A stretch of DNA of 64,000 nucleotides from a virus (taxonomy: Duplodnaviria > Caudoviricetes): positions 64,001 through 128,000 of the IMG/VR virus record IMGVR_UViG_3300021387_000648; one strand, written 5' to 3'. The position numbers and the translations under genes are program-made. Below the pieces are notes generated by a model. That model was not told where the DNA came from and made no database searches. It worked only from the letters and a program-made list of their open reading frames with translations. Of the stretch, positions 972-24,336 are shown one piece after another. Numbering within the stretch: position 1 is the first letter of the stretch; the number at the start of each line of letters is the position of its first letter.

Positions 972-1214
972 TTGATGAAAGAGTTCTTCGTGAAGGGTAC
1001 GGTTGCGTGGACGACAAGCTATGTGGCAGACGGCGAGAAAAGGTCAAAGGAAAGCGAAGCTGAGTTCGATCGGTTTGTGAAGGCCAATAGCGCCGAGAAT
1101 GCCAAAAAGGATGTCACAGACCGTGTGATTGAACAGAGAAGCCGCCGAAGCGCGTTCGGGACCAAGAGCAATGTCCGGATCACGGAAATTGCCGTGTATG
1201 AGAGAGTGGCGTGA
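972..1214 (+). CDS. hypothetical early protein
   Basis: GAGGAGGTG RBS; first gene after the promoter. Confidence 0.7.
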   Translation: MMKEFFVKGTVAWTTSYVADGEKRSKESEAEFDRFVKANSAENAKKDVTDRVIEQRSRRSAFGTKSNVRITEIAVYERVA

Positions 1215-2212
1215 TGCAAAACAAGATCCAGGACATCGTCCGATTCGCTACGGACTGCAAAACGGACGCGATGAGATGGAACATGCCGGACGAATTGCAG
1301 GACGAATATCCGTGGCCGTTTATTGAAAAAGTGACGACATGGATTGAGAAGTACGTGAGCGCGTCTGGCGGAGAAAAGGCCGACCAGACTGAGGTTGGAA
1401 ATCATGTGCAGTCCATGTACATCGCGTATCATTGGTGTAAGTTCAAGAAGATCTATTCGATGAACAGCACATTTGCCCGGTATCTGGCCGAAACAGAAGA
1501 TGCGCCAATCTCCGTGAACATTATCAGAAGGTTGCCTTTCCGAAGCTTTGCTCTGACATTTGACGATGACAAGAAAATAATCGATCTGTTCCCGCAGGTG
1601 TTCGGAAGTGTGGAATGCCTGCTGGTGACTGTCGGCATTGAGGCCGAAACAGATGTTTATATCAGCATTGCGCTTGTCGGAACGTCTGCAAGGGGAAAAA
1701 GAATCGTTGCAACCGGGATCACATCCCTGAAGGATGGAGATTGCTACGAGACTGCGCTTCGTGACGGGGATAAGATTCTCTATACGGGGAGTCTGGAAGA
1801 AGCTCGGATGGAATGGAGGCCGGTGTACCGCCTTGCTCTGAATGCATGTCAGTACTTTTGCGCGTCCAATGCAGAGGTCCGAGATGTGAAGATCTCGAAA
1901 AACAAGAAGCCAAAAGTGACGGTCAACGGGAAAGAGAAGCCGGTTGCGGTCAGCATGTCAGAGGTTGGCTTTAGAATCGGGAAGCGCTTCGAGGCGATGT
2001 ACGCACAGAGGGGAGAAAACGAGCAGCGCAGTGACGAGAGGTCATGGACACCAAAGCGCCCACACGTCAGGCGGGCCCACTGGCACCACTACTGGACGGG
2101 CCCGGGAAGAACGGTGCTGGAACTGCGGTGGTTAGAGCCGGTGTTTGTGATGGGCGATTCGGACAGAGTTGACGCCGTGGTCCACAAAGTCGGAAGAGAA
2201 AATGCGAGCTGA
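1211..2212 (+). CDS. AcrVA2/FinQ-family-like protein
   Basis: 333 aa; C-terminal RPHVRRAHWHHYWTG...WLEPVFV motif that I recognise from the AcrVA2 family. Confidence 0.55.
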   Translation: MMQNKIQDIVRFATDCKTDAMRWNMPDELQDEYPWPFIEKVTTWIEKYVSASGGEKADQTEVGNHVQSMYIAYHWCKFKKIYSMNSTFARYLAETEDAPISVNIIRRLPFRSFALTFDDDKKIIDLFPQVFGSVECLLVTVGIEAETDVYISIALVGTSARGKRIVATGITSLKDGDCYETALRDGDKILYTGSLEEARMEWRPVYRLALNACQYFCASNAEVRDVKISKNKKPKVTVNGKEKPVAVSMSEVGFRIGKRFEAMYAQRGENEQRSDERSWTPKRPHVRRAHWHHYWTGPGRTVLELRWLEPVFVMGDSDRVDAVVHKVGRENAS

Positions 2213-2223
2213 GAGGAAAACAG

Positions 2224-2466
2224 ATGGCAAGAAAACAACCGGAGACGATCAAGGAAAAATTCGCCTCCATGCGGATCGGACGGTATAAATCCGAGGTGAA
2301 GGTCTGGCAGTATTATTCGATCTTCAACTTCTGCCGGACTGCCGGAATCGACCGCGAAGAGTCGGACCGCGTGGCAAAGTGGTGCAGAGATGCCGCAAGC
2401 GTCGGAAGTGAGTATATCACGCCGGAACTGTCCATTCGGATTGTGGAGAAAGAAATCATCGTATGA
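2224..2466 (+). CDS. hypothetical protein
   Basis: GAGAGG RBS, 80 aa. Confidence 0.65.
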   Translation: MARKQPETIKEKFASMRIGRYKSEVKVWQYYSIFNFCRTAGIDREESDRVAKWCRDAASVGSEYITPELSIRIVEKEIIV

Positions 2467-2497
2467 TTAAAGAAATTTTTGATAAGGGGGTGATCAG

Positions 2498-3358
2498 GTG
2501 AACAAATTCGATTCGCTGGGCGATAGGATGAAAGGGTACGAAAACGTACAGAGATACTATCTCACGCGCCGCGTTCCGGTTATTGTTCGCCTTTAGCTTG
2601 ATGGCAAAGCGTTCCATTCCTTCACGAAAGGGATGCAGAAGCCTTTTGACCGGTTCTTGATGACTGTGATGCAGGAAACCATGCTGAGCCTGTGCAAAGA
2701 GATTCAGGGCTGCGTATTCGGGTACACCCAGTCGGATGAGATCACATTGGTGCTGACCGACTATAAGACCATCAAGACGGATGCGTGGTTTGGCTATAAC
2801 GTCCAGAAGATGGCAAGTGTGTCCGCGTCAATCGCAACATTGGAGTTCAACCGGATCTTCCGAGAAAAAAGTAATTACGTCAAGGCAGCGGCTTTCTTGG
2901 AGGGGAAAAAGGACGAATCCGGGGTGCTGAATCCGGAAGACGGTCTTGTGAGAAGGTCAATGCTTCTGGCTTCAAAGTATAACAAGGCCCTGTTCGATTC
3001 CAGATGCTTCGCGGTCCCGGAAGATGAGGTGTGCAACTGCCTGATCTGGCGGCAGCAGGACGCCACTCGAAACAGCATTGAAGCTGCTGGACAGGCAAAC
3101 TTCTCACACTCCGAACTGCATGGAAAAAGCTGCAACGAGATCCAAGACATGCTCTTCACCAAGAAGGGAATCAACTGGAACGACTACCCGACAGACTTCA
3201 AGCGCGGAGCGGCGTGCTATAGGGTTAAGAGGACAGAGACAATGGAAGACCCGCGAAATCCAGGGAATACAATCACGGTGGAGAGAAACAGGTGGGTCGT
3301 GGACACCGAGATCCCGATATTTACTCAAGACCGCGAGTTTGTAGAGAAGTGGCTGTGA
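2498..3358 (+). CDS. tRNA(His) guanylyltransferase Thg1-like protein, interrupted by an in-frame TAG (2594-2596)
   Basis: GTG 2498 with RBS gives MNKFDSLGDRMKGYE...VPVIVRL*LDGKAFH; downstream YTQSDEI, FDSRCF and WRQQDATRNS Thg1 motifs. Confidence 0.85.
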
Positions 3359-3397
3359 TTGAAGCAAAATCAAAAAAGAAAAATGGAGGAATGAGCA

Positions 3398-3970
3398 ATG
3401 AACATGTTCAACGGTATGTTTGGCAAGGTGGCAAACGGCATGTGCCGTCTGTCGATGAACGGCGGAATTGCCGTCAAGACCAGTGACGGGTACAAAACCT
3501 ACAACGTGAAGACAAACAAGCTGACCAATTGCAGCAACTTTGTCTTCGACATCGGCGAAGAGTTCTTCTTCGTGATTCCAACGAATAAGGTGGAGAAGGG
3601 CGACATTATCATTGCGTCCGGTAAACCGAAGTGCGTGATCGCTGTCGATAAGGACACACTGACGGTGATCAACTACGAAGATTCGACTGTCCAGAACATT
3701 TTGCCTGAGCGCCACGTGTTCATGGGCAACACGTACTTTTACGGTAAGATCGTGAGCATGTTCGGGAACAGCATCACGAACGGCAAGAAGGGCACCGACA
3801 AGCTCATGAAGTACTGGATGATGTCCGAGATGATGAAGGGCGGAACTCCCGGCGGAAACCAGATGAGTTCAATGCTTCCGCTTATGATGATGGGCGGAAA
3901 CTTCTCGGATATGTTCGACGGGATCTTCGATTCCGACGAAGAGGATGAAGAAACGGAGGCTGAAGAGTAA
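3398..3970 (+). CDS. hypothetical protein (Met-rich C-terminus), first gene of the vWA/AdSS cluster
   Basis: GGAGGA RBS; translationally coupled to the vWA gene. Confidence 0.75.
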   Translation: MNMFNGMFGKVANGMCRLSMNGGIAVKTSDGYKTYNVKTNKLTNCSNFVFDIGEEFFFVIPTNKVEKGDIIIASGKPKCVIAVDKDTLTVINYEDSTVQNILPERHVFMGNTYFYGKIVSMFGNSITNGKKGTDKLMKYWMMSEMMKGGTPGGNQMSSMLPLMMMGGNFSDMFDGIFDSDEEDEETEAEE

Positions 3971-4839
3971 TGGGCGGAGGAGCATGGACAAGCACAGCCT
4001 ATTGTAACTATACCGTTGCGACAAAAGCAATGAACGCCAGAGAATATGCGTCCTGTGACAGCATCAATGTACAGCAGGCGTTCAAGATGCGGGAGATTCA
4101 TCCGGACCTGAATCCAATGAACGTCATGCGCAGTTGCCGCGACACGGAAGAGCATCCGAAAACCGTTCCCGTCATTCTTGCACTGGACGTGACCGGCTCA
4201 ATGGGCAAGGCGGCGACGGAGGTTTCCAAAAAGCTTGGACCGATCATGGAGGATATCTACGAGCACAGCTCTGTGTCTGACGTGGAGTTCTGCATCATGG
4301 CAATCGGCGACCTCTACTGCGATGCGGCACCGATTCAGATCTCTCAGTTTGAGTCGGATGTTCGTATCGCGGAGCATCTGGACAAGGTCTGGTTTGAGGG
4401 CGGAGGCGGAGGAAACGCCTATGAGTCCTACACAACAGCGTGGTATATGGGCCTGAATCACTGCGATCTGGACTGCTGGAAACGCGGGAAGAAGGGCGTC
4501 ATTATCACGATGGGTGACGAGCAGATTAACCCGTATCTCCAGCAAAGAGAGCTTGGGCTGCGCGTGGGAGATAAGCTACAGGCGGACATCGAGACCCGCA
4601 CCCTGTTTGAAGAGGCGAGCGAGAAGTTCGATATCCACCACATTTCTGTGGACGATCCGGAGTCTTCTTACAGCCGTTACAACCGCAATGGCGGAATTGA
4701 CGCATCTTGGAAGCCGGTTCTCGGCGACAACTATCACGTATCGACGATTAGCGGCTTGCAGCAGATGATTTCCGGCATTATCACAGGACATGCCGGTGAC
4801 AGCATGCCGGAAGAGGCTCCAAGCGAAATCAGATGGTGA
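3970..4839 (+). CDS. von Willebrand factor A (vWA) domain protein
   Basis: LALDVTGSMG MIDAS motif, GGGGGNAYESY, ITMGDE. Confidence 0.85.
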   Translation: MGGGAWTSTAYCNYTVATKAMNAREYASCDSINVQQAFKMREIHPDLNPMNVMRSCRDTEEHPKTVPVILALDVTGSMGKAATEVSKKLGPIMEDIYEHSSVSDVEFCIMAIGDLYCDAAPIQISQFESDVRIAEHLDKVWFEGGGGGNAYESYTTAWYMGLNHCDLDCWKRGKKGVIITMGDEQINPYLQQRELGLRVGDKLQADIETRTLFEEASEKFDIHHISVDDPESSYSRYNRNGGIDASWKPVLGDNYHVSTISGLQQMISGIITGHAGDSMPEEAPSEIRW

Positions 4840-4850
4840 GGTGAGAATCA

Positions 4851-5996
4851 GTGGAACACAATGTCAAAATCGTAATCGGAGCGAATTACGGAGACGAGGG
4901 CAAGGGCCTGATGTCGCGGTATTTTGCCAAACAGTTCTTGGAGAACGGGCAGAAACCGATAACCGTATTTCACAACGGCAGCGCTCAGAGGGGGCACACC
5001 GTTGACTACGAAGACGGGACCAGACATGTGTTCCACAATTTTTGTGCAGGAGCAAAGGACGGAAGCTTGACGTACTATGCGGATACGTTCCTTGTCCATC
5101 CAATGGACTTTCGCAGAGAGGCAGAAGAGCTTGGGTTTGTGCCGCCTGTATATTGCAGTCCTCAGTGTGTTGTGGTAACGCCTCTGGATATGCTGGCGGA
5201 CCATATCATAGAGGACTATATCGCGGCAGAAAGCGGCGCGAGGGAATACGGGAGCTGCGGCTATGGTACATGGAGTGCGACAGACCGTTTGAAAGAAAGA
5301 CCGGACCTTGCCTACACGCTGATGCACTTCGCGACAGGGGATTATCGCCTGATGATGGAAACCCTGATGGACTGGGTAAAGAGCAGACTCGTGACGTTTC
5401 AAGTGGATCTGGACCTCATCCCGCACTGGAAAGAGCACGTGGATCGGAAGTCCGGACGGTTTGAATTCCTTTGCGCACACTTCAAGTCTGACTTGAACTT
5501 TTTCCTCCAGCATATCAGGCTCAGAGCCTTTTGCGAGGTCTGGAATCAAAACAGGGCTATCATCTTTGAGGGGGCTCAGGGGCTTCTTCTGGATAAAGAC
5601 AGAGACGGAATCTGGACAACGACGTCCAACACGGGATTGCTGAATCCCGTTCGTTTTCTGCGCGGCTACGAAGACTACAAGGCAGAGGTCTGCTATGTGA
5701 CGCGGACCTATGTCACGAGACATGGCGAAGGGCCTCTGGAAAATGAGACGTTTGTCGGCGAGGTGGGAGAGAACATCTTCGACCGCACGAACGTCTTCAA
5801 CGAATTTCAGGGTGGACTTCGATATGCGGTCATTCCAAAGGTAGATACATCGGAGATGGAACGGGACTACAAGGCGGCAAGCGGATTGCCGATGGACATG
5901 ACCGTTGCGGTTACGCACTGCAACGAGAGGGAGATTGCCGGTGGAGACTACCGGTCTTACAGCCCAACACAGATACTTCAAGTCAAAAAGAGGTGA
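4851..5996 (+). CDS. adenylosuccinate synthetase-like protein (PurA family, divergent)
   Basis: GANYGDEGKG, QRGHTV, GSCGYG, FEGAQGLLLD, RTYVTRHGEGP. Confidence 0.85.
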   Translation: MEHNVKIVIGANYGDEGKGLMSRYFAKQFLENGQKPITVFHNGSAQRGHTVDYEDGTRHVFHNFCAGAKDGSLTYYADTFLVHPMDFRREAEELGFVPPVYCSPQCVVVTPLDMLADHIIEDYIAAESGAREYGSCGYGTWSATDRLKERPDLAYTLMHFATGDYRLMMETLMDWVKSRLVTFQVDLDLIPHWKEHVDRKSGRFEFLCAHFKSDLNFFLQHIRLRAFCEVWNQNRAIIFEGAQGLLLDKDRDGIWTTTSNTGLLNPVRFLRGYEDYKAEVCYVTRTYVTRHGEGPLENETFVGEVGENIFDRTNVFNEFQGGLRYAVIPKVDTSEMERDYKAASGLPMDMTVAVTHCNEREIAGGDYRSYSPTQILQVKKR

Positions 5997-12324: not shown

Positions 12325-12409
12325 GTGCCTGTGGTGGAACTGGTATTCACATCCGATTTAAGATCGGACGCCAAAAGGATTGAGAGTTCGAATCTCTCCG
12401 GGCACACCA
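12325..12409 (+). tRNA. tRNA-Leu(TAA)
   Basis: Cloverleaf, TCCGA-TTTAAGA-TCGGA, GTTCGAATC, CCA end. Confidence 0.92.
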
Positions 12410-12412
12410 CAA

Positions 12413-12489
12413 GCTTCCGTGCTGCAACCGGTAGACAGGGGCGGCTCAAACCCGTTTGTTTCCGAGTTCGAATCTCGGCGGAAGCACCA
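12413..12489 (+). tRNA. tRNA-Leu(CAA), short variable loop
   Basis: GGCGG-CTCAAAC-CCGTT, T-arm, ACCA end. Confidence 0.85.
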
Positions 12490-12513
12490 ATCAATTAGAA
12501 AAGGAGAGACAAG

Positions 12514-13158
12514 ATGGCAGTAGACATCCAGAAAGCGAAAGACGAATTCAGCATGATCTATGATCGCATCGAAAGAGATGGGGCTATGGCGCTGTATGAC
12601 TGGATGGAAAACGAGACAGACTTTTTCGTTGCTCCGGCAAGCAGCAAGTACCATCTTTGCGAACCGGGCGGATTGTGCCAGCACAGCATCAACGTATACA
12701 ACCGGCTCAAGATGTTCCTTGACTGTGAGTACGGCAAAAACAATCCTTACAGTGAAGAAACAATCGCAATTGTTTCGTTGCTGCACGACCTGTGTAAGAC
12801 CGGATTCTACGAAATGGACTGGAAAAACCAGAAAAACTACGATTCGGAAGTTGTCCGCAATGCGCCTCCAAAAGAGAGAAAGAGCGATAACAGGGGAGAG
12901 TTCATCTGGGAGAGTGTTCCCACCTACACGATCCGCGAGCAATTCATCTATGGTCACGGCGAGAAGAGCGTTTATCTGGTCCGCAACTATATGAATCTGA
13001 CGGACGAAGAGGCTCAGGCGATCCGGTTTCACATGGGAAGCTTCACCGAAGCCGACAAGAACAATGTTGGCAAGGTTTACGCCCAAAGCCCTCTGGCCTT
13101 CTACCTGAATATGGCGGATGGAGCCGCAACCTTCTTGGATGAGCCGAGGGGTGAGTGA
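12514..13158 (+). CDS. HD-domain phosphohydrolase (YhaM-like)
   Basis: APASSKYH...GGL..HS, LLHDLCK, HGEKS, IRFHMG. Confidence 0.85.
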   Translation: MAVDIQKAKDEFSMIYDRIERDGAMALYDWMENETDFFVAPASSKYHLCEPGGLCQHSINVYNRLKMFLDCEYGKNNPYSEETIAIVSLLHDLCKTGFYEMDWKNQKNYDSEVVRNAPPKERKSDNRGEFIWESVPTYTIREQFIYGHGEKSVYLVRNYMNLTDEEAQAIRFHMGSFTEADKNNVGKVYAQSPLAFYLNMADGAATFLDEPRGE

Positions 13159-13472
13159 TGGAAATTCCGGAAGCAAAGTCACTTAGATGGCTGGCAAATA
13201 TGTTCCCGTATACAGAAGGAGCGGTGGATCAGGTCGACAAAATGAGCAACTGCATCCATCTGTATGCGACGAACGGTGCGAACAAGATTGACGAACTGGC
13301 GAACAGAAAGCAGGGAACGTGGATCTATAACACAGACGGATGGACTCCACACCTTCGGTGTTCGGAATGCGGATTCAACTTTCCGGTTGTTGCTGCCGAA
13401 GATGGAGATCCTACGCCGAGAAAGTTTTGCTCCAACTGCGGAGCTCCCATGATGGAAGGAGAACTGATATGA
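13155..13472 (+). CDS. hypothetical Zn-ribbon protein
   Basis: CSECG...FCSNCGAPM. Confidence 0.65.
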   Translation: MMEIPEAKSLRWLANMFPYTEGAVDQVDKMSNCIHLYATNGANKIDELANRKQGTWIYNTDGWTPHLRCSECGFNFPVVAAEDGDPTPRKFCSNCGAPMMEGELI

Positions 13473-13879
13473 CCGCAAAAGAGATGGCGGAAATCCTCAA
13501 TGGCCGGGAATACGGCATGGAGGTAGATTCAGACGACAAAGCTGCAGCGAAAGCCAGCGGACTTGTGATCGTCTACGGGTACTCGGATGACTGCGCGGAA
13601 CTGGAAGGAGCGATCGATGACGAGGTGTCCTGCTACGATGGCGGCGGGTTCTCTGTCACCAAAGACCGCGTTTGGAACGGTCCGGATTGCGGCAACGACA
13701 GGTGCGAGTTCTACCAAGCCGCAAAGAAGGAAGCCAAATTAATTACTGCGGTTTGGTGTGATCCGGAATCTGGGGCGTCTTGGTCATACAAGACGGATAT
13801 CCCGCACGAGACCTTCAACATCTACGAAGACGGAGAACTGTTTTGTATCGGAATCGTATTCAGCATAGACGACCTGTAA
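13469..13879 (+). CDS. conserved phage hypothetical protein
   Basis: LNGREY, GYSDD, TDIPHETF motifs; RBS. Confidence 0.7.
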   Translation: MTAKEMAEILNGREYGMEVDSDDKAAAKASGLVIVYGYSDDCAELEGAIDDEVSCYDGGGFSVTKDRVWNGPDCGNDRCEFYQAAKKEAKLITAVWCDPESGASWSYKTDIPHETFNIYEDGELFCIGIVFSIDDL

Positions 13880-14107
13880 ACTGGCTGACGGAGCGGCAAA
13901 GGCAATATCTGGAAAGAGCCTGCCAAGCAGCCGGTCTGGCTCTTCCAAAGAATCCGGATACGATGCTCTTGCGCGGCGGTTCAAGGGGCGGCGGAAAGCT
14001 TTTCTTCAAATGGGCTTATGAGGCAGGAATTGAGAATCCGATGCTGATAAACGTCCTGACGGAAGAGGGCATGGAATTGAGAAAAAAGATACTTGGAGAT
14101 TTGTGAG

Positions 14108-15121
14108 GTGATAGCTACGAAGAAAGGAAAAGAGGTCCCGGTGATCCGGGACATGACGGAAGCGCAGACAAGGGAAATGTTCTATCGATGCGAGCCAATG
14201 CTGATCGGCTACGGCGGAAGTATCGCTTACGGGACGAATCTGCCGACTTCAGACGTGGATATTCGCGGGATCTACATGAATCCTCTGGATGAGTTTATCG
14301 GATGCCGTCCTGTATCGGAGCAGTACTGCCCATCGGGAACGGATATCACAATCTACAGCCTGAAGAAAATGATGCATCTGCTTTTGCAGTGCAATCCGAA
14401 CGTGATTGAAATTCTCGGGCTGAGGCCGGAGCACTACCTGTACAAAACCGAAGAAGGCCAGATGTTGGTGGACAACGCGGAAATCTTTCTGTCCAAGCAC
14501 GCGGCTTACACCTTCGGAAACTATGCAAAGTCGCAGTTGAACCGCCTGATGAACAAGTCCGGACGGGCAAACGATCAGGTGGTCTCGAACGAGGTCAGGT
14601 CCATTTCCAAAACGCTGAGCTCGATCCGCAAAAGGGAAGGCCTGCAAAACATCCGAATTGATGAGGTGGACGGCGTGCCGGTTCTGACCATCAATGAGTC
14701 TATGCCGATTGACAAGTTTGCCAGCATAACCAACGAGATCAATAACGTTCACTTGGACTACAAGTCCAGTTCCCGCAACCGCAAGGCCGTGGAGCACAGC
14801 AAACTGGCAAAGCATATGATGCATCTGCTGCGTCTGTACATGATGGGCATTGACATCTTGGAATCCCACAAGATCGTCACATATCGCGAGGCGGAGCACG
14901 ACCTTCTCATGGACATCCGCAACGGGAAGTACCTGAAAGAAGACAAGACCACGCCGACTGCTGAGTTCGACGAGCTTCTGGCGGATTACACGGCGCGGTT
15001 TGAAAAGGCGGTTGAGGAGACAACGCTTCCGAAGCGACCGGACACGGATAAGGCCAATGAACTGATGATGCGGCTTGTCTGCATGCACTATGACGGACTG
15101 TCAGGAGGAACGACACGATGA
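14108..15121 (+). CDS. nucleotidyltransferase (Pol-beta superfamily, YcgL/RlaP-like)
   Basis: GGSIAYGTNLPTSDVDIRG, CNPNVIEIL, KHMMHLLRL. Confidence 0.85.
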   Translation: MIATKKGKEVPVIRDMTEAQTREMFYRCEPMLIGYGGSIAYGTNLPTSDVDIRGIYMNPLDEFIGCRPVSEQYCPSGTDITIYSLKKMMHLLLQCNPNVIEILGLRPEHYLYKTEEGQMLVDNAEIFLSKHAAYTFGNYAKSQLNRLMNKSGRANDQVVSNEVRSISKTLSSIRKREGLQNIRIDEVDGVPVLTINESMPIDKFASITNEINNVHLDYKSSSRNRKAVEHSKLAKHMMHLLRLYMMGIDILESHKIVTYREAEHDLLMDIRNGKYLKEDKTTPTAEFDELLADYTARFEKAVEETTLPKRPDTDKANELMMRLVCMHYDGLSGGTTR

Positions 15122-15759
15122 CGGATATTGATAAGTTGAAAGAAGAATACAAGAATGTCAGAGCCGTATTCGGAGCTTTCAAGTGCCGTTTGGACGCGGC
15201 AATTCAGAAAGCGGAGTGTATCGCCAACGCGGAAGAAATCGCCTACCAGAAAGGATATGAAAGCGGCAAAGCTGAGGCAGAAATCCGGTTGCTCGATGAA
15301 AACGGCGAATGGGCCAAAAAGCTGAAGCAGACAGCCTATCAGAAAGGCACCCGGGACGGAAACGCCGAAGGCGCTCTGGCGGCGTGGGATATTGCCACGA
15401 TCATTGTGACGCCGGAGGAAGATGGTGGAACGATTCCGACAAAGGACCTGAGAGAACTGTTCGATGTCGAATGTGACTATGAGGTTTTCAAACGGTATAC
15501 TCCGAGCGAGGCTCTGGCAAAGCTTCAGGAGTACGACAAACAGATCCGGGTCGGAGATGAGGTCATTGCGGAAGGTGACGCAAAGTATATTGTCACGCAG
15601 ATCAAGAACAATGACGGATGCAAAACATACTCCGGCATCAATTCCGATGGAGAGACGTTTTGCTATTTTGAGACGGACGGCGTAACCAAGACAGGAAAAC
15701 ACATAGATCTCTCCAAAATGTTTTCTTCCATCCGGGAGGAATCAGAAAAGAATGAATGA
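15118..15759 (+). CDS. hypothetical protein
   Basis: AGGAGG RBS. Confidence 0.65.
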   Translation: MTDIDKLKEEYKNVRAVFGAFKCRLDAAIQKAECIANAEEIAYQKGYESGKAEAEIRLLDENGEWAKKLKQTAYQKGTRDGNAEGALAAWDIATIIVTPEEDGGTIPTKDLRELFDVECDYEVFKRYTPSEALAKLQEYDKQIRVGDEVIAEGDAKYIVTQIKNNDGCKTYSGINSDGETFCYFETDGVTKTGKHIDLSKMFSSIREESEKNE

Positions 15760-16678
15760 GTATTACCGGAATCTGTTTCGCGCGATTTCGGCGAACGACC
15801 TTCCCAAAACAAGGGCCTATGCTCAGGTAATTCTCCGGACGAACAGCACGGCAAAAGACGCCCAGTTCTGCGAAAATATTTTGCAGAAGATGGATGATCA
15901 GGACAAAGCCGGACCGGAGATCCCGTATAACCTGAAGGGGGTTATTCGGACAAGCAGTTCCCCATTCGGATTTCATGCAGACAGGTACTATCTTTCTCCG
16001 CGTGAGAAAACGGTAATCGAACACATCAAGAAGATGTATCAGGTGTCCGGGAAGCTCGCTGAGCTTGGAATCAGATACACCAATGCGGTTCTTCTGCATG
16101 GAGAATCCGGAACCGGTAAGACTACCTTCGCGCAGTACGCTGCAATCTTGCTTGGGCTTCCGTTCTTCTATGTGAGCATCACGCAACTGATCGACTCCTA
16201 CATGGGCAAGACGGGTCAGAACTTGGAGAATGTCTTCGAGTTTGCAAACTCACAGCCGTGTGTCCTCGTCCTGGACGAGATTGATCAGATCGGCTCCAAA
16301 AGGCGGGATGACGGCGGTGTGTCCGGAGAGATAAAGCGTGTGCTGATTACGATTCTGCAGAACATGGACAGACTCCCGAATCATGTTGTTCTGGTCGCCG
16401 CGACAAACCGCCCGGACTCATTGGATGATGCTCTTGTTCGCCGCTTTGCGGTCAAGCACGAAATCACCCGCCTGAATTTAGAAGAAAGCGAGGCTTTTGT
16501 CAGTCGGTACATGTCAAGTCTCGGCTTGGGGTGGGCAGGCTCCGTCAGAGCGTTCCTTTTGTCTTTGGGTGCAGACAAATGGAACTACACACCAGCTGAG
16601 CTTTCCCAGCATTTAAATGAAAAGATTGCCGAGGCGATCTACACGGGCGAGCCGGACCCGACGATTTATCTGAATTGA
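15752..16678 (+). CDS. AAA+ ATPase
   Basis: GESGTGKT, VLDEID, AATNR, ALVRRF. Confidence 0.9.
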   Translation: MNEYYRNLFRAISANDLPKTRAYAQVILRTNSTAKDAQFCENILQKMDDQDKAGPEIPYNLKGVIRTSSSPFGFHADRYYLSPREKTVIEHIKKMYQVSGKLAELGIRYTNAVLLHGESGTGKTTFAQYAAILLGLPFFYVSITQLIDSYMGKTGQNLENVFEFANSQPCVLVLDEIDQIGSKRRDDGGVSGEIKRVLITILQNMDRLPNHVVLVAATNRPDSLDDALVRRFAVKHEITRLNLEESEAFVSRYMSSLGLGWAGSVRAFLLSLGADKWNYTPAELSQHLNEKIAEAIYTGEPDPTIYLN

Positions 16679-16691
16679 GGAGGACGGACAG

Positions 16692-16967
16692 ATGAGGCGA
16701 AAGATTGCCAAGCGTCTGAAGAGGGAAATCGTCAGAATGGGGGCCGTCATCCAAAAAGACGGTTGGGATGTTCCGAGGAAAAGCGTCCCGAGAAAAGAGA
16801 ACGGCTACATCTTTAAAGTCATGTATCGGGGCTGGTCCATATTCGCAGCCGGTGAAGATGAACTGGAATCCTTCAGAATGGTCCTGGACGTCATGGAGCA
16901 CGACTGCGAAGAGATTTTTGTTCGCGAAAATAAAACCGATGGAGGAAACCAAGATGACCAAAGTTGA
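16692..16967 (+). CDS. hypothetical protein
   Basis: GAGGAGG RBS. Confidence 0.6.
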   Translation: MRRKIAKRLKREIVRMGAVIQKDGWDVPRKSVPRKENGYIFKVMYRGWSIFAAGEDELESFRMVLDVMEHDCEEIFVRENKTDGGNQDDQS

Positions 16968-17238
16968 GCAGCATGCTAAGGTCTGCAAGGAACTGAATGA
17001 GCTTTACAGCAGAAAGAATTCTGATTACGGAGATTCTTTCGGCAAGAGCTATGAGGAGTTTGGCCCGGTTATGGCGGCAATCCGGATGGGCGACAAGCTC
17101 AATCGATACAAGGCTCTGATCAAGGGGCGTCAGCAAGTCAATGACGAAAGCGTCAGGGACACCCTGATTGATCTTGCCAACTATGCTGTCATGACGGTTG
17201 TGGAGATGGATCTGCAAGCGAAGGGCGGCGAAACATGA
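16954..17238 (+). CDS. DUF1599 / nucleotide-modification-associated domain protein
   Basis: KNSDYGDSF...RMGDKLNR...DTLIDLANYAVM. Confidence 0.8.
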   Translation: MTKVEQHAKVCKELNELYSRKNSDYGDSFGKSYEEFGPVMAAIRMGDKLNRYKALIKGRQQVNDESVRDTLIDLANYAVMTVVEMDLQAKGGET

Positions 17239-17663
17239 CCGAAACAGAGACCAGCCGAGATCCGGTCGTCGGACGCCTTGACAAGGCCACGCTCGACACG
17301 CTGAGAATGGTGTACAAAAAAGGCACCAAAGTGGTAGCAATCAAGGTCTTTGGGTTTCCTTCCGGGAAGATCGGATACGTGAAAGAGGTCCTTCCAAACG
17401 GAAACATCAAACTCACGTGGGAGTCCGGAGAGGACACCGAGATCATATACGGGAAAGAAAGCATCCGGGAATTCACTGCTGGAAAGTGCATCTTGAAACG
17501 AGACAAGGAAGAGGCGGAAGGCGGCTGCGATGACTTCGTGTGCGAGCGCTGCGGATGGAACATCGATGTCGCCGAAGCACGTCTCCAAAGAATCCGAAAC
17601 GATGAGATGCATAGAAACCCGGACGGCACAAAAAGCCTCAGAGTCCAGAGCGCGAGAGTGTGA
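17235..17663 (+). CDS. hypothetical protein (DUF4314-like N-terminus)
   Basis: LRMVYKKGTKV...I.LTWESG pattern. Confidence 0.55.
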   Translation: MTETETSRDPVVGRLDKATLDTLRMVYKKGTKVVAIKVFGFPSGKIGYVKEVLPNGNIKLTWESGEDTEIIYGKESIREFTAGKCILKRDKEEAEGGCDDFVCERCGWNIDVAEARLQRIRNDEMHRNPDGTKSLRVQSARV

Positions 17664-17671
17664 TTTTGGGG

Positions 17672-17700
17672 TTGACTCAGGTCTAATTTTAGTGTATAAT
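17672..17700 (+). promoter_or_regulatory. sigma70/SigA promoter with degenerate box
   Basis: TTGACT-17-TATAAT. Confidence 0.75.
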
Positions 17701-17745
17701 TCGATTATACCAAAAAGCATTTGATGAAAGCTGCACAGTTCACTC

Positions 17746-17803
17746 TTTGTTCATGAAAGTGACACCTTGCCGTGTTAAAATGACTATGATGGAGAAAGTG
17801 TAG
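17746..17803 (+). repeat. 58-bp regulatory repeat, copy 1 (promoter-like)
   Basis: Near-identical to 37547-37604; ATGAAA-17-TAAAAT with TG extension. Confidence 0.7.
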
Positions 17804-17871
17804 ATACACTCCGAGATAGTAATTGAACGCGGCTGAGAGAAGCCGCGTTTTCCTTTTTTGAGGTGAGCGCG

Positions 17872-18570
17872 ATGATTGACAAAAGAGCGATCCGAAGGTA
17901 TCATAAACGGGTAGATTCGAGACTTGCAGCGAGAGGCAAACGGTTCGACGGGAACCGGTGGGAAGAAGACAAACACCCGAGAGCGAAGGACGGAAAGTTC
18001 GCCTCCGGGAACGGCGGACCATCAAAACAGAGCGAGAGCAAGCCAGCGGCGAATGCGGCAGGCTCGGCAAAGGCGGTTGCAAAATCGAGGATCGAGCTTG
18101 ACGGACCGTCTGGAAGCAAGGGCTTTGCTGACAAGTACATGGCGTCGCATCCCGATGTCGCAAAGGAGGCCTCGAAATACAGGGGCGTCCTGAACAAGGT
18201 AAAAACCTTCAAGGCGGACGAGGACGGAACCTTCAGCGCAACAACCGGAGAAAGGCTTGACCTGACCGAAGGGTTCTGCGTTACCTTCCACCAAAACCTG
18301 AAGATCGGCGACGAGTACGGCGCTTATGATGACGACACGTATTCCAAGATGTGTGCCATTACGAAGCACGAACTCAAGTCCAGCGATGTCTACATCGGCT
18401 ATTACGGGAATCCGGAAGTTTCGTTCAATTGCCCGGATGAGAAAACGGCGATGGACTTTGCGATCAAGCATAACCAGAAGTCGATTTACAACTGCAAGAC
18501 CGGAAAGACCATTCTGAATAAGCACTACAATCCGGAGACAAATCCGATAGAGGGCGATAACGATGGCTAA
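17872..18570 (+). CDS. putative virion cargo protein with Arg-rich leader
   Basis: AIRRYHKRVDSRLAARGKRFDG leader, then WEEDKHPRAKDGKF motif. Confidence 0.7.
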   Translation: MIDKRAIRRYHKRVDSRLAARGKRFDGNRWEEDKHPRAKDGKFASGNGGPSKQSESKPAANAAGSAKAVAKSRIELDGPSGSKGFADKYMASHPDVAKEASKYRGVLNKVKTFKADEDGTFSATTGERLDLTEGFCVTFHQNLKIGDEYGAYDDDTYSKMCAITKHELKSSDVYIGYYGNPEVSFNCPDEKTAMDFAIKHNQKSIYNCKTGKTILNKHYNPETNPIEGDNDG

Positions 18571-18862
18571 GATCGATATTGGAAAACTGAATGAATCCGT
18601 TTCATCCTTTGTGGAAAACCCGCATTGGAAGAAGTATCTGGAAGAAGCTCCGTCCGGCGAGTGCAAGGCGTACATCAAACTGAACTTCTATCTCAGTGAC
18701 ATCGAATCAGACGGCCCGGAGAAAGACGCGGTGATCGACAAGATGAACGCCTACGAGGACAAGCTTGGCCTTGCAGACTGGAAGCACCTGCTGAAATACG
18801 CAGGGAACAATCCCTTCGCCGGTAAGTGCAAGAAGCGGATTGCAGAGCTCTCGGAACAATAA
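18563..18862 (+). CDS. hypothetical protein (possible partner/immunity)
   Basis: Coupled downstream of the cargo gene. Confidence 0.6.
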   Translation: MAKIDIGKLNESVSSFVENPHWKKYLEEAPSGECKAYIKLNFYLSDIESDGPEKDAVIDKMNAYEDKLGLADWKHLLKYAGNNPFAGKCKKRIAELSEQ

Positions 18863-18912
18863 ACGATACGGGTTGGTAAACCCCGGTATGAAAAACCGAA
18901 AGCTTCCAATAT

Positions 18913-18988
18913 TGCGGCGTGGTAGCAGTGGTAGCTCGCTGCCCTCATAAGGCAGAGGTCGTTGGTCCAAATCCAACCGCCGCAACCA
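18913..18988 (+). tRNA. tRNA-Met(CAT)
   Basis: CTGCC-CTCATAA-GGCAG, ACCA end. Confidence 0.88.
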
Positions 18989-18993
18989 TAAGG

Positions 18994-19130
18994 TCGGGCA
19001 GCTCCCGAATGATCTCAGTAGCTTGTCGGTGTGCCTGAGAGAGAATAACAAAGGCCTTTCTGAAAACTCCTTGCGCGTGAACGGTCGTGCGCAGGCTGGG
19101 GCGCGAGTGAGATAATCTAAGAAAGGAAAC
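18994..19130 (+). ncRNA. candidate structured RNA (motif repeated at 20880; possibly skipping-rope-like)
   Basis: TCGGG-CAGCT-CCCGA ATGAT CTCAG...CTGAG AGAGAATA. Confidence 0.45.
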
Positions 19131-19140
19131 CGCACAATAC

Positions 19141-19217
19141 AGCCCTGTGGTGCAGTTGGTGAACACGTCGGCCTGTCACGCCGAAGATCGCGGGTTCAAG
19201 TCCCGTCAGGGTTGCCA
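19141..19217 (+). tRNA. tRNA-Asp(GTC)
   Basis: TCGGC-CTGTCAC-GCCGA, GCCA end. Confidence 0.92.
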
Positions 19218-19525
19218 ATACGTCTCATCTGAGCGTGGCACAACACAGTCTGTTGACGCAAGGACTGTACGGGCGAAATCAGATGCCGGGGCGGGGTTAC
19301 ATCCCACGGAGCGTCACCGTGCTCGCAAAAAACGGACTCGGTATGTCCCAAGTCATCGTGAGAGTATACACCTTGGATGGCACAAAGCGTTTAGAAGTGC
19401 CCGATCAGCCTTCTGCGCGTATCCCGGACGGTCCGGGACCAAGGACTGTGAAGAGCGTGTTCGATTCCGCGAACTCGAAGGTTCGACTCCTGACAGTGCT
19501 GGTGCAATATCAGTCCTTTTTATAC

Positions 19526-19614
19526 GCGGAATGATGCCGTCCGGCGACGGCTGCGGCCTTGAAAACCGTGGGTAGCAGAGATGCTATGGGGGTCGGCACC
19601 TCCGTTCCGCGCCA
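19526..19614 (+). tRNA. tRNA-Ser(TGA), non-canonical 8/4 fold
   Basis: 8-bp acceptor stem, 6-bp D-stem with 4-nt loop, long variable arm, 4-bp T-stem, GCCA. Confidence 0.85.
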
Positions 19615-19617
19615 GAT

Positions 19618-19707
19618 GCAGTGTTGCCAGAGCGGTAATGGGCCCGCTTGGAAAGCGGAAGCCAGGTTGAGAAGCCTGCGAAGGTTCGATCCCTTCACGC
19701 TGCGCCA
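19618..19707 (+). tRNA. tRNA-Ser(GGA)
   Basis: TTGGAAA loop, long variable arm, GCCA. Confidence 0.9.
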
Positions 19708-19710
19708 GAT

Positions 19711-19800
19711 GCTTCGTTATGCCGGACGGCTCCGGTCCTTGCCTCGAAAGCAGAGGGTGCCCGATGAGGGCATGGGGGTCGGCACCTCAGCGAAGCGCCA
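19711..19800 (+). tRNA. tRNA-Ser(CGA), non-canonical 8/4 fold
   Basis: GCTTCGTT/AGCGAAGC 8 bp, GCCGGA-CGGC-TCCGGT D-arm, GGGG-GTCGGCA-CCTC T-arm. Confidence 0.85.
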
Positions 19801-19803
19801 CAA

Positions 19804-19878
19804 AGAGCCGTCGTCTAAGGGTAAGACACGAGGCTTTGACCCTCGTATGTGAAAGTTCGAGTCTTTCCGGCTCCGCCA
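19804..19878 (+). tRNA. tRNA-Gln(TTG)
   Basis: CGAGG-CTTTGAC-CCTCG. Confidence 0.9.
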
Positions 19879-19882
19879 GTAT

Positions 19883-19968
19883 GGAAGAGTGGCCGAGTTG
19901 GTCAAAGGCAGCGGACTGTAAATCCGTTGGCACTGCCTACACAGGTTCGAATCCTGTCTCTTCCACCA
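19883..19968 (+). tRNA. tRNA-Tyr(GTA)
   Basis: GCGGA-CTGTAAA-TCCGT. Confidence 0.93.
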
Positions 19969-19971
19969 CAA

Positions 19972-20048
19972 GGTCCCATCGACTAACAGGCAAGGTCACC
20001 AGCCTTTCACGCTGGCAATGCTCGGTTCAAATCCGGCTGGGATCACCA
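19972..20048 (+). tRNA. tRNA-Glu(TTC)
   Basis: CCAGC-CTTTCAC-GCTGG. Confidence 0.9.
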
Positions 20049-20051
20049 CAT

Positions 20052-20127
20052 GGGGTCGTAGCTCAGTTGGGAGAGCGCCTGCCTTGCAAGCAGGAGGCAG
20101 AGGGTCCGAGCCCCTCCGATTCCACCA
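20052..20127 (+). tRNA. tRNA-Ala(TGC)
   Basis: CCTGC-CTTGCAA-GCAGG. Confidence 0.9.
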
Positions 20128-20130
20128 CAT

Positions 20131-20207
20131 GGTCTCTTCGTCTAAAAGGATAGGACGCAAGCCTCTCAAGCTTGTAATGCTGAGTTCAAGTCTCGCAGAG
20201 ATCACCA
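20131..20207 (+). tRNA. tRNA-Glu(CTC)
   Basis: CAAGC-CTCTCAA-GCTTG. Confidence 0.88.
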
Positions 20208-20329
20208 GCACATCTGACCGCCGAGGACGCGTACTCGGGAGATACCCGCAGATAGACGGAGAAGAAGCGGGGCTGAGCGGCACGGTGCAGACCCGACACC
20301 CGCAGGGTCCATGCCGCAAGCGGGTATAT

Positions 20330-20406
20330 GGCTCATTAGCTCAGTTGGTTAGAGCGCACGGCTGTTAACCGTGATGTCGAAAGTTCGAGTCTTTCATGAG
20401 CCTCCA
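20330..20406 (+). tRNA. tRNA-Asn(GTT)
   Basis: CACGG-CTGTTAA-CCGTG. Confidence 0.9.
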
Positions 20407-20703
20407 CCAAGTGGCTGTGCTGCAGTGTTTGCATCGAAGCACCTCCTTTCGTAAATCCACACGTCTGCTGGCCGTGCTTGCGCTACGGTTGTTGGATGAA
20501 ACAAAGCAGAGCCGTGAACCGGAACAACGTGCGTACTGGGAACGCACGCCGGGAAATCGGCACAATACAGAACTGTTGGCTTTGATTCCTGCCTTGTACC
20601 GAAGGCTTCGGTCCCACCGAGGCGATGGATGTAGGTAGCAGCTGGGGATTATGAAAGCCGCAGACCCGATTAAAGCTCCGCGAGACGGACTATCGGGCAA
20701 TAC

Positions 20704-20778
20704 AGGTTGGTGGTGTAATGGCAACATGCCGGTCTCCAAAACCGTGCGATCAGGGTTCGAGTCCTTGCCTTCCTGCCA
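20704..20778 (+). tRNA. tRNA-Trp(CCA)
   Basis: CGGT-CTCCAAA-ACCG; two U-U mismatches in the acceptor stem. Confidence 0.85.
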
Positions 20779-20788
20779 AAAAGAATAC

Positions 20789-20877
20789 GGAGCGTTGGCC
20801 GAGTTGGTAAGGCACCGGATTGCTAATCCGTGGTTAGGGGCAACCCTACGAATGTTCGAGTCATTCACGTTCCGCCA
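20789..20877 (+). tRNA. tRNA-Ser(GCT)
   Basis: CGGA-TTGCTAA-TCCG, long variable arm. Confidence 0.9.
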
Positions 20878-20879
20878 TT

Positions 20880-21348
20880 TCCGGGTAGCTGCCGGATGAT
20901 GTCAGAGCAGATGCACCAGAGGCCTGACAGAGAATATGAATGGTAGACCGACCAAAGCGGGGCGGAAGCCCTGCACAAGGCCTATGGCGGTACTACAAGT
21001 GAGGGCAACGTCGAAGGAACGCGACTGATTTGTGCGGGATGGCAGACCCACAAAAAAGAACAAACACGCCCCGCTGCGGGTGACAGCGCCAAAGGAAGCT
21101 GAGACGTCCGGTTTCCGGGTCTCTCACTTAAAGCGGGGAATAGGCCGAATAAAACAGGAACTTGGCCGTAGGGCAGTGAAAGCGCGAATGCGTTGTAGCT
21201 GACTGATGATGGCAGACAGAGCAAACGGCTGTAACGACAGGACGTGTGAATTAGCCGTCTACTGAAAGGGAAAGAAATCCCGTAAAAGCTGTTTGCTCAC
21301 AATTCTATATCGGATACCGTCATGCCGAAAGGTGTGGCGGTATCTTTG
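20880..21348 (+). ncRNA. candidate large structured (pseudoknotted) ncRNA ending in a hairpin
   Basis: Several long-range complementary pairs; no credible ORF; 3' hairpin GATACCGTCATGCC-GAAA-GGTGTGGCGGTATC. Confidence 0.5.
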
Positions 21349-21367
21349 CTTTGGGGAGAGAGCAGAA

Positions 21368-21616
21368 ATGAGTAAGTCGAAGGATATTCGCACGCTCTGC
21401 GCCTCCTGCAGAGCAGAATACGAGGAAGCCGGATTTGAACTGATCAAAGTCTGGGTGAAAAACAAAGAGGAATGTGACTGGTGCCGCGTGAGACTTGGAT
21501 GGACCTATGAAATACGCGGAAAGAGACAACATCTTCGTAGCTCAGATGGCAAGAGCGCTGAATACTCCCAATTCAGGGGTCGCGAGTTCAAGTCTCGCCG
21601 AAGATGGACGCGATAG
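21368..21616 (+). CDS. small Cys-rich protein; 3' end overlaps the tRNA-like element
   Basis: CASC...CDWC; GGGGAG RBS. Confidence 0.5.
   Translation: MSKSKDIRTLCASCRAEYEEAGFELIKVWVKNKEECDWCRVRLGWTYEIRGKRQHLRSSDGKSAEYSQFRGREFKSRRRWTR
21531..21606 (+). tRNA. tRNA-like element with abnormal anticodon arm, no CCA
   Basis: Canonical acceptor, D and T arms; CTGAA-TACTCCCAA-TTCAG. Confidence 0.65.
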
Positions 21617-23202: not shown

Positions 23203-24336
23203 GTGGATGACATTGTAAAGAAATACCGCATGCGCCGAGATGCAAGGATTGCGGCCAAAAAAGCCCACGCGGACGACCAGTGGATCACAATGCGAGGAAC
23301 GCATGTCCTGATAGACGGCGGCGGACAGGTATCAAAGGGACCTGAAAAGCTGAAAAACGTTGTGAAGCAGGGCGGCGGGTACAAGTCAAAAGCTGACCGG
23401 AAGTACGGAAGCAGCGACAAATACAGCAAGGCGATGAATAACGGCTGGAATGTGAAACCAGCCGTGGAACAGCCAAAAAGAGAACGAAGACCGCTTGCAG
23501 ACATACACAAAGAGTTTGAAGACAACAGGTACCGTCTGGAAGACTCTTTGAAGAAACGCGACAAGGCCAAAGAAAACTATGAGATGAGCAAGGGCAATTA
23601 CGATTTGTACATGGATGATCCGGGAACGTCTGAAGAGTTCAAAGAGATGTTCCGGAAAGACCTTGCCATGACTCAGAAAAAATATCAGGAAGCAAAGAGC
23701 GAAGTAGACCGGCTTTCGGAGAAAGACAGAGCCTTGAAAAAAGAACTGTCTGAAGAGCGCGACGCGGTCAAGAAAGAAGACCAAGCGGCAATCAGGTCCG
23801 GTCCTGTGGCATACGTCAGGTCTGAAAAAGTCGTTACGGCGATTCGTGGCAACGAGAGCTTGATCAGAAAGAAAGATTACGAAAAAGGAGCTTGCGTGGA
23901 CAAAAACGGCAGGCTCTTGTTTGAGGCAACTGACGGCAAAGCGAGTCAGATCGACCTTGAAGCGTATAAGGACAAACTGAAAGACTCCGTGTTCACACAT
24001 AACCATCCCCGGGGTTCAACACTCAGCGTGGATGACGTCAGCTGTGCCGTCGCTCATGGAATGGCGGAAGTAAGGGCTTGTCATCGAGGCGGTACATACT
24101 CTCTCGTCAGGCAGTATTCGCTTGATGGCGAAAAGCCTGCAAATTACATGGACTTCGCTTGGGACTATCAGGAAAGCGTCGCAAAGTATGACCGCGAAGT
24201 TATCGATCCGATCTGGAGACGTGGACCGCAGGTACAGGAAACTGCGGACAGGTGCAATAAAATGTACGACGATTACCGCCGTCTGTGGCTGGAACTGAAT
24301 TCGAAGAAATACGGATGGATTTATTCGGAGGAGTAG
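23203..24336 (+). CDS. putative virion cargo: Arg-rich leader + C-terminal JAB/MPN-like (HNHP) domain
   Basis: YRMRRDARI...HADD-QWITMRGTHV; YEKG...FTHNHPRGSTLSVDD. Confidence 0.7.
   Translation: MDDIVKKYRMRRDARIAAKKAHADDQWITMRGTHVLIDGGGQVSKGPEKLKNVVKQGGGYKSKADRKYGSSDKYSKAMNNGWNVKPAVEQPKRERRPLADIHKEFEDNRYRLEDSLKKRDKAKENYEMSKGNYDLYMDDPGTSEEFKEMFRKDLAMTQKKYQEAKSEVDRLSEKDRALKKELSEERDAVKKEDQAAIRSGPVAYVRSEKVVTAIRGNESLIRKKDYEKGACVDKNGRLLFEATDGKASQIDLEAYKDKLKDSVFTHNHPRGSTLSVDDVSCAVAHGMAEVRACHRGGTYSLVRQYSLDGEKPANYMDFAWDYQESVAKYDREVIDPIWRRGPQVQETADRCNKMYDDYRRLWLELNSKKYGWIYSEE

Follow-up and report, generated by a model that had tools for sequence, protein, structure and literature searches.

The window analyzed in the present study, a stretch of 64,000 nucleotides that comprises bases 64001-128000 of a 146-kb phage record in IMG/VR, contains a gene for a Thg1-like enzyme (thg1), the reading frame of which is interrupted inside the catalytic motif by the six nucleotides TAGCTT. 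We suggest that this insert confers immunity against a free-standing LAGLIDADG endonuclease, encoded in related phages by a homing endonuclease gene (HEG) directly upstream of thg1, and that the interrupted gene is rescued by a +6 hop of the ribosome, which would make the locus a minimal analogue of the mobA/gene 60 cassette of phage T4. This reading, to which we assign a probability of approximately 0.62, is based on comparisons of sequences.

Regarding the gene itself, all parts of which lie on the + strand, a Shine-Dalgarno sequence (SD; AAGGGGG, 2484..2490), which the related loci L146, L156, and L165 retain at the HEG 3' end (L and X numbers are our designations for loci and contigs), precedes a GTG start codon at 2498. 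An N-terminal block of 32 codons (2498..2593), transmitted as a unit together with the HEG cassette, extends from this GTG to the putative take-off codon CTT (2591-2593). It is followed by the insert (2594..2599), which consists of the stop codon TAG (2594-2596) and the putative landing codon CTT (2597-2599), and then by a C-terminal part of 252 codons (2600..3358), which begins with the resume codon GAT for the metal ligand D35 and ends with TGA. Codons 31-36 (2588-2605) read CGC CTT TAG CTT GAT GGC, and the frame from GTG 2498 is open past the TAG as far as the TGA at 3356-3358, giving a total of 286 codons. The read-through translation is a member of the Thg1 family, with a match to Pfam Thg1 at 6.9e-27 (94.4 bits versus a cut-off of 29.2) and a further match to Thg1C, and it matches BtTLP, the TLP of Bacillus thuringiensis (PDB 4kgk), at 1e-60. 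R31, D35, and S79-D80-E81 of the window protein align with R28, D30, D75, and E76 of BtTLP, which represent the GTP-binding arginine and the catalytic carboxylates, and the window protein has two additional residues opposite PVIVR--IDG. In BtTLP, R28 binds the incoming GTP and D30 is a ligand of Mg2+ (PMC3701042); the 2-residue insertion falls between the equivalents of these two residues. The continuous-frame R-x-D spacing of the Thg1/TLP family (PF04446) is broken in the window by the TAG and CTT codons between L32 and D35, and the insert is missing from all 81 canonical contexts that were compared. An earlier note, made from the letters of the window, had described the ribosome-binding site with GTG 2498 and the CTT-TAG-CTT interruption of the Thg1 motif, both of which are borne out by the sequence, Pfam, and the 4kgk alignment. 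It had also proposed that a CUU-to-CUU hop restores RLDG, and, at the level of the sequence, resuming at GAT yields the motif of the 81 canonical contexts.

The possibility of the TAG being read as a sense codon deserves attention because the frame is open through it. A near-cognate tRNA that reads the TAG would produce a 286-aa protein with R-L-X-L-D-G, in which case the stop would keep expression low, and a C directly after the TAG makes for weak termination. However, the two extra residues would land between the GTP-binding arginine and the Mg-ligand aspartate, a place at which a sense insertion occurs in 0 of about 145 uninterrupted loci; the stop is never replaced by a sense codon in any interrupted lineage; the genome has no suppressor tRNA; and readthrough cannot rescue the sister inserts of 1, 4, and 5 nt described below. 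We consider this explanation to be improbable. The earlier note was correct in treating TAG as a true stop elsewhere and in missing a tRNA for it: TAG terminates 10 of the 60 long open reading frames (ORFs) of the window, including those at 24336, 26645, 43045, and 56785, and a CUA anticodon is absent from all 14 tRNAs of the 146-kb genome as a whole. Furthermore, thg1 is the sole real gene in the window that has an in-frame TAG. A reassignment of TAG of the code-15 type was ruled out on these three grounds.

The insert is real and represents neither an artefact nor a singleton, as confirmed by its identical presence in contigs from IMG/VR, JGI, ENA, Logan, and NCBI that were obtained from many samples. 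The motif CTT TAG CTT was also found in two IMG/VR contigs and one JGI contig, the protein of which is 92% identical; the other relatives in the IMG/VR and JGI scans (<=65-69% identity) have an uninterrupted R-[LIV]-D-G. In a collection of 15 billion proteins, the 90% cluster of the downstream ORF is a mixture of intact and interrupted alleles. The intact alleles of this cluster are 284 aa in length without the insert, and its apparently truncated alleles of 241 and 225 aa carry the insert wherever their DNA was fetched; among the cluster members listed, about 39 contigs have an interrupted allele and about 27 an intact one. An insertion unique to this contig, which had been named in the earlier note as an outcome that would speak against a programmed bypass, is at variance with these numbers. 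A mistake in assembly or sequencing, or a pseudogene confined to this contig, is an explanation for which we see only the general prior that applies to metagenomic contigs; it is refuted by the occurrence of the same 6 nt in more than 35 contigs, which stem from independent studies and assemblies, and has a negligible probability. One of these contigs (X16) comes from an RNA library and crosses the insert, but its left side comprises 20 nt, and it says nothing on transcription or editing. Contigs X15 and X17 carry the N-terminal block of the intact allele.

The insert is linked to the HEG. In the interrupted contigs L145-L147, a 310-aa ORF lies between an 80-aa ORF and thg1, and this ORF has a LAGLIDADG_2 domain (Pfam 1e-13) with helix-turn-helix domains on both sides, and its TGA overlaps the GTG of thg1. 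All HEG relatives that were placed, from 98% down to about 40% identity, sit directly 5' of a thg1; these were located on Logan/ENA contigs, in 19 IMG/VR loci, and in 3 bacterial genomes. The scan of viral contigs succeeded with an alignment-based query, and a scan of these contigs with the single HEG protein as the query found nothing. We tabulated 105 distinct site contexts: canonical uninterrupted DNA was next to an HEG in 0 contexts and free of one in 81, interrupted DNA in 14 and 3, and intact DNA with the altered motif D-M-[RK]-A-G-H in 5 and 2. Canonical DNA encoding RLDGKAFH was thus present in 0/19 HEG-adjacent versus 81/86 HEG-free contexts (Fisher p=1e-16). The three HEG-less interrupted contexts, including that of the window, all carry a remnant of the HEG C-terminus.

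In the window, the full LAGLIDADG ORF, which is present in L146, L156-L166, and others, is missing. The 80-aa ORF (2224..2466, +) borders the site of HEG insertion on the left: the HEG comes after this ORF in L146 and L156-L164, and thg1 comes directly after it in the intact loci L149-L151. In the window the 80-aa ORF is followed by a 12-codon mini-ORF (2463..2501, +; MIKEIFDKGVIR and stop), the ATG of which overlaps the stop of the 80-aa ORF (ATGA) and the TGA of which overlaps the GTG of thg1 (GTGA). We regard this mini-ORF as the remnant left by a deletion of the HEG because it ends with KGVIR and a stop like the endonuclease; the HEG of L146 ends with NLFKKGVIR and shows the same GTGA overlap. 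The KGVI remnant was detected in 15/15 HEG-less interrupted loci versus 0/123 canonical loci, and, in contig X3 from a DNA run, approximately 1 kb of additional sequence lies between 2453 and 2484. A transposon scar, as had been considered in the earlier note, was half right as an alternative in that the insert appears to mark the target site of a mobile element, namely, a LAGLIDADG HEG that has been deleted here.

Comparisons of alleles point to the manner in which the cassette may have moved. The intact allele of L149 differs from the interrupted allele by about 30% over the 96 nt 5' of the insert, and the 3' side is almost identical; this combination of a divergent N-terminal block and shared downstream sequence therefore places a recombination junction exactly at the insert. 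The N-terminal block is identical in all window-type alleles, and the same HEG and N-terminal block were found on C-terminal parts that have diverged to dS~0.9, from which we infer homing. Based on these sequences, the endonuclease may recognize DNA encoding RLDGKAFH across the boundary between RL and DGKAFH, and carriers would need to alter that site. In the intact thg1 of other loci, D-M-[RK]-A-G-H (GAT ATG AGR GCT GGA CAT) replaces D-G-K-A-F-H, with an HEG in L171-L174, L176-L183, and L104 and without one in L033-L037, L051, and L137-L140. This replacement points to a third way round the endonuclease, in which the 3' half-site would be critical for recognition, and also to an enzyme that tolerates changes from Gly to Met and from Phe to Gly beside the catalytic Asp. 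In L220, a second HEG-like ORF (2508-3120, LAGLIDADG_3/Hom_end) is located directly 3' of a thg1 with a 5-nt interruption, which is flanked by two HEGs. The HEG-thg1 pair adjoins an RNA ligase gene in L170 (1356-1997) and a serine hydroxymethyltransferase gene in L169 (367-1200); the cassette is one that travels with thg1 across different neighborhoods.

The inserts found at this codon boundary form a series. Among those of 6 nt, CTT TAG CTT is shared by the window type, the L156 type, and L165, while the others read CTT TAG TTT (L169), CTT TAG CTA (L175), CTT TAA CTA (L191), and CTT TAA CTG (L192). The 5-nt insert of L220 reads ATT TAG TT GAC (landing GUU) and the 4-nt insert of L170 reads TGT TAGC GAC (landing AGC). 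The 1-nt insert takes the form CTT T GAC in L185-L190, L194, L195, L197, and L208 and CTT C GAC in L184; L194 is a prophage in the cultured bacterium Eubacterium plexicaudatum ASF492 (AQFT02000004.1), and a pattern scan for the 1-nt form mostly returned chance matches outside thg1, the real ones being L197 and L208 only. R-x-D-G is restored in every class once the insert is removed. At positions 2-3, the take-off codon is matched by the triplet that precedes the resume codon, the pairs being CUU with CUU, CUA, CUG, or UUU, AUU with GUU, and UGU with AGC. As the codon after the take-off codon, the window has TAG, the TAG-recoded phages have TAA, the 1-nt forms have UGA, and L184 has CGA. The 1-nt form with T is the heptamer CUU UGA C of prfB, at which a +1 shift gives Leu-Asp and, hence, RLDGK; this form could be rescued only by tRNA slippage, which argues against readthrough. 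The earlier note had proposed that homologs be searched for a conserved matched codon-stop-codon with covarying take-off and landing codons, and the predicted pattern was found. Its proposal of a programmed +6 bypass stands to the extent that related cassettes keep a stop between matching codons; the purpose that it had assigned to the bypass, namely, the tuning of expression, gives way to the target site of the HEG.

According to the mechanism that we propose, the mobile cassette would consist of a free-standing LAGLIDADG HEG, the first ~32 codons of thg1, and an insert that disrupts the target site. The endonuclease would cut thg1 alleles with uninterrupted DNA for the conserved R-L-D-G-K-A-F-H, repair templated by the donor would copy the cassette into the cut allele, and the insert between the Leu and Asp codons would render the carrier immune. 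The window phage may have later lost the HEG through a deletion that left the 12-codon remnant and retained the insert. During translation, a ribosome with CUU in the P site and UAG in the A site would, in the majority of cases, terminate or slip by +1; in a fraction of ribosomes, the peptidyl-tRNA-Leu would leave CUU 2591 and re-pair with CUU 2597, and decoding would restart at GAU 2600. The product of this +6 hop would be an enzyme with exactly the wild-type R-L-D-G. Sister cassettes may reach the same outcome through +4 or +5 hops or, where the site is CUU UGA C, by shifting +1, and the common principle would be a peptidyl-tRNA that re-pairs while a stop or slow codon fills the A site.

An alternative that needs to be weighed against rescue by a hop is that the immunity patch is selfish and simply inactivates a dispensable thg1, with the ORFs remaining intact through the recentness of the invasion and with no recoding. 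We consider this explanation to be the less probable of the two, and it does not account for the manner in which the site has changed over time. In the tree of the HEG, the 4- and 6-nt forms are distributed over three deep clades separated by branches of 0.4-0.8 amino-acid substitutions per site, and synonymous sites are therefore saturated, with which a dS above 1 in thg1 agrees. Over this divergence, the changes in the hexamer all keep a stop followed by a Leu or Phe codon ((5/18)^4 = 0.006), and no conversion of the stop to a sense codon was found in any interrupted lineage. The take-off codon is CTT in 10/10 Leu lineages versus 13/39 Leu codons at canonical sites (p=2e-5), and the Arg codon is CGY in 11/12 interrupted lineages versus 33/81 canonical sites. 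Among bacterial +1 shift sites, CUU_U is the best known (PMC5009743). A simple knock-out leaves unexplained why the stop is kept as TAG or TAA with a YTN codon next to it over saturated divergence, why the CTT take-off codon is invariant, why, in the Ile and Cys forms, the landing triplet changes along with the take-off codon, and why the 1-nt insert gives rise to CUU UGA C again.

The identity of the stop also appears to follow the genetic code of the phage. TAA was found in the inserts of exactly L191 and L192, the HEG ORFs of which contain 7 and 8 in-frame TAGs, some at Gln positions, and no other stop; these TAA inserts fit the need for a true stop where TAG is sense, which a knock-out would again leave unexplained. 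TAG is apparently a sense codon in four contigs, L191 (3300031994_000158), L192 (3300021400_000239), L189 (3300029305_009391), and L193 (3300021400_001615), the HEG ORFs of which have 2-8 in-frame TAGs, some at conserved Gln positions, and no other stops. When TAG is treated as sense, coding coverage increases from 0.68 to 0.83 in the L191 contig and from 0.49 to 0.75 in the L189 contig.

The integrity of the two parts of thg1 was then considered. In all interrupted alleles except that of L189, the start codon, an N-terminal ORF of 31-36 codons, and a C-terminal ORF of 226-269 codons are intact. A calculation of dN/dS on either side of the stop, as had been suggested in the earlier note, gave 0.08-0.3 in both parts between interrupted lineages, values that may in large part stem from intact alleles invaded recently. 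Between the window and L001, codons 35-243 show about 30 synonymous and 3 non-synonymous differences, the stretch from the TAG to M46 shows three changes, all of which are synonymous, and the private changes of TAG haplotypes comprise 23 synonymous and 6 non-synonymous ones. The HEG-less window-type alleles have 0 variable sites in the 102 nt of the N-terminal block and insert versus 6/35 nt in the adjoining HEG remnant (p=2e-4), a test that is less exposed to the caveat of recent invasion and that speaks against a mere knock-out. The same applies to the abundance of HEG-less interrupted alleles, which, by the contig counts for the listed cluster members given above, are at least as common as intact alleles. 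The lack of any difference from L001 in codons 1-34 of the window gene had been considered as a sign of constraint at the RNA level; this was rejected because equally long difference-free stretches exist nearby and inheritance of the cassette explains the block. The C-terminal 40 codons of thg1 (codons 244-283, 3225-3355) are mosaic, being far from L001 and from intact alleles of the same cluster and closer to the more distant P0004/P0005 group, which indicates recombination within the gene.

Several observations weigh against rescue by a +6 hop, and a number of these favor an inactivated gene. A large share of the low dN/dS and of the ORF integrity may have been inherited from intact alleles that were recently invaded, a caveat raised because the HEG and N-terminal block are identical within groups on C-terminal parts that are highly diverged (dS~0.9), a pattern indicative of recent homing, and because downstream polymorphisms are reticulate and partly common to intact alleles. 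The thg1 of L189 has a second frameshift at about 3290-3310, an extra A in the A-run TTTAAAATATTCC where relatives encode F-N-I-P, which may reflect decay, a mistake in the assembly, or a further slippery site. In L024 and L108, thg1 is without its first ~36 codons and has unrelated sequence upstream, and these loci show that thg1 can be truly truncated in some phages. Cleavage of thg1 by the endonuclease is deduced from the association alone, the covariation of the stop codon with the genetic code comes from one sister pair (L191 and L192), and re-pairing in the 4-nt form would be weak, with AGC as the landing for tRNA-Cys. CUU_UAG also ranks in its own right as a strong site for +1 shifts and would direct ribosomes into a dead-end frame of 21 codons that ends at 2660. 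Synthetic stop-hops were reportedly inefficient in the work of Weiss et al. in 1987, and no conserved SD-like or structural stimulator was found around the site. The knock-out stays a live explanation because of the last three of these points, that is, inefficient stop-hops, an unproductive +1 shift, and the lack of a conserved stimulator.

Regarding stimulators, the hairpin CATTCCTT/AAGGGATG (2615..2635, +) pointed out by the earlier note does exist in the window and folds with one G-U pair; however, it is not conserved in related insert-bearing lineages. L156, L165, and L169 retain only CCTT/AAGG, a by-product of the F-T-K-G codons, and the hairpin is probably incidental. Interrupted alleles show an enrichment of short complementarity only, either of the type CGYC/GRCG (CGUC/GACG) or between the R-L and K-A codons, and the fixed CGY CTT codons confound this signal. 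An Rfam search of window positions 2300-2900 found nothing relevant.

We also considered a gene in pieces, in which a 32-aa N-terminal peptide and a C-terminal protein starting from ATG 2633 (M46) assemble or one fragment acts alone. Gene callers annotate a 241-aa ORF from 2633, and genes that were split by an HEG and remain functional are known in T4-like phages. However, the product from M46 would be devoid of the strand with the catalytic Asp35, position 46 is Leu or Phe in other interrupted lineages and, thus, the start is not conserved, no SD is present at a useful spacing 5' of 2633, and the changes in codons 34-45 are synonymous only, all of which make this arrangement very unlikely. 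Three further candidates were rejected: transcriptional slippage, because the T-run is just 3-4 nt; a micro-intron of 4-6 nt, for which no mechanism is known; and reinitiation at the landing codon, because none of CUU, CUA, and UUU serves as a start codon and the TTG at this place lies in another frame.

Rescue by a +6 hop has precedents among known recoding systems, and the closest systems include the mobA/gene 60 cassette of T4. MobA is an HNH-type enzyme, whereas the HEG at thg1 belongs to the LAGLIDADG family. In T4, as in the thg1 cassette, a free-standing HEG is located directly 5' of the target gene, the insert is located at an invariant catalytic motif (codon 46 in gene 60 and codon 32 in thg1), the codons for take-off and landing match, with UAG right after the take-off codon, and the insert presumably shields the gene from the nuclease of the HEG. 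The gap in gene 60 is described as protective against the nuclease of the upstream HEG, and the mobA/gene 60 cassette is found in many phages, sometimes without the HEG (PMC5009743; bioRxiv 2022.08.31.505936). In contrast to gene 60, in which the gap is 50 nt and the target is a topoisomerase, the inserts in thg1 are 1-6 nt in length and have no recognizable take-off stem-loop, mini-SD, or nascent-peptide signal; furthermore, the hosts of the thg1 cassette are gut Clostridia, and the bypass in thg1 is a putative one.

The Leu codon-UAG-Leu codon layout of the window is the same as that of synthetic stop-hops in Escherichia coli, and L175 has CUU UAG CUA; these stop-hops were reporter constructs, unlike the natural locus in thg1. 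Matched-codon stop-hops work in such E. coli constructs, in which 9 nt encode one amino acid, and a review of recoding in 2016 knew of no natural in-frame stop-hop (PMC5009743). The +1 site of prfB, which encodes release factor 2 (RF2), has a heptamer, CUU UGA C, identical to that in the 1-nt cassettes, with a Leu-Asp product in both; the window shares its core of CUU_U plus a stop, but the +1 shift is unproductive in the 6-nt form, and the thg1 sites are without the SD stimulator 3 nt upstream and the autoregulatory logic of prfB. The Byp elements in the mitochondria of Magnusiomyces capitatus are 27-55 nt long. Similar to the thg1 inserts, they are short and mobile, their take-off codon matches the landing codon, and the codon in the A site is undecodable (PMC5009743), but they are mitochondrial and have no link to the target of a homing endonuclease. 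A search of the literature on Thg1 combined with homing endonucleases or frameshifting found nothing on a system of this kind.

Concerning the surroundings of thg1, the window contains 14 tRNA genes at 12325-21607 (Leu x2, Met, Asp, Ser x2, Gln, Tyr, Glu x2, Ala, Asn, Trp, and Gly), among which there is no tRNA-His and no suppressor. This set fits a Thg1-like enzyme that acts in the repair of tRNA 5'-ends. A gene similar to that for adenylosuccinate synthetase (4851-5996, Pfam 1.7e-21) is located 1.5 kb 3' of thg1. An upstream ORF of 333 aa (1211-2212) is AcrVA2-like (PF26125) in the precomputed annotation of relatives, and our own Pfam scan gave no match for it at 1e-3. A megablast search of window positions 1200-5000 against GenBank phages yielded no match.

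Taken together with the sister inserts, the locus in the window leads us to favor, at odds somewhat better than even, a broader view in which thg1 of gut phages holds a family of natural micro-bypasses of 1 to 6 nt, including the first natural in-frame stop-hop, that evolved as immunity patches against a LAGLIDADG homing endonuclease directed at the DNA for the catalytic motif of Thg1 and the shapes of which are set by the ability of the ribosome to slip and hop. If this is true, gene 60 of T4, which has long been held as a near-unique curiosity, would gain a graded natural series (+1, +4, +5, and +6, with TAG or TAA and with varied take-off codons) that is tied to the codon boundary of one enzyme and to one endonuclease family and has one member in a cultured gut bacterium. 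This would make the mechanism of short bypasses and the frequency with which genes of this kind are wrongly labeled by gene callers as dead or truncated amenable to tests, and it would predict the target site of a new LAGLIDADG enzyme. The manner in which genes are jointly shaped by homing endonucleases and the translation machinery would become testable in the same series.

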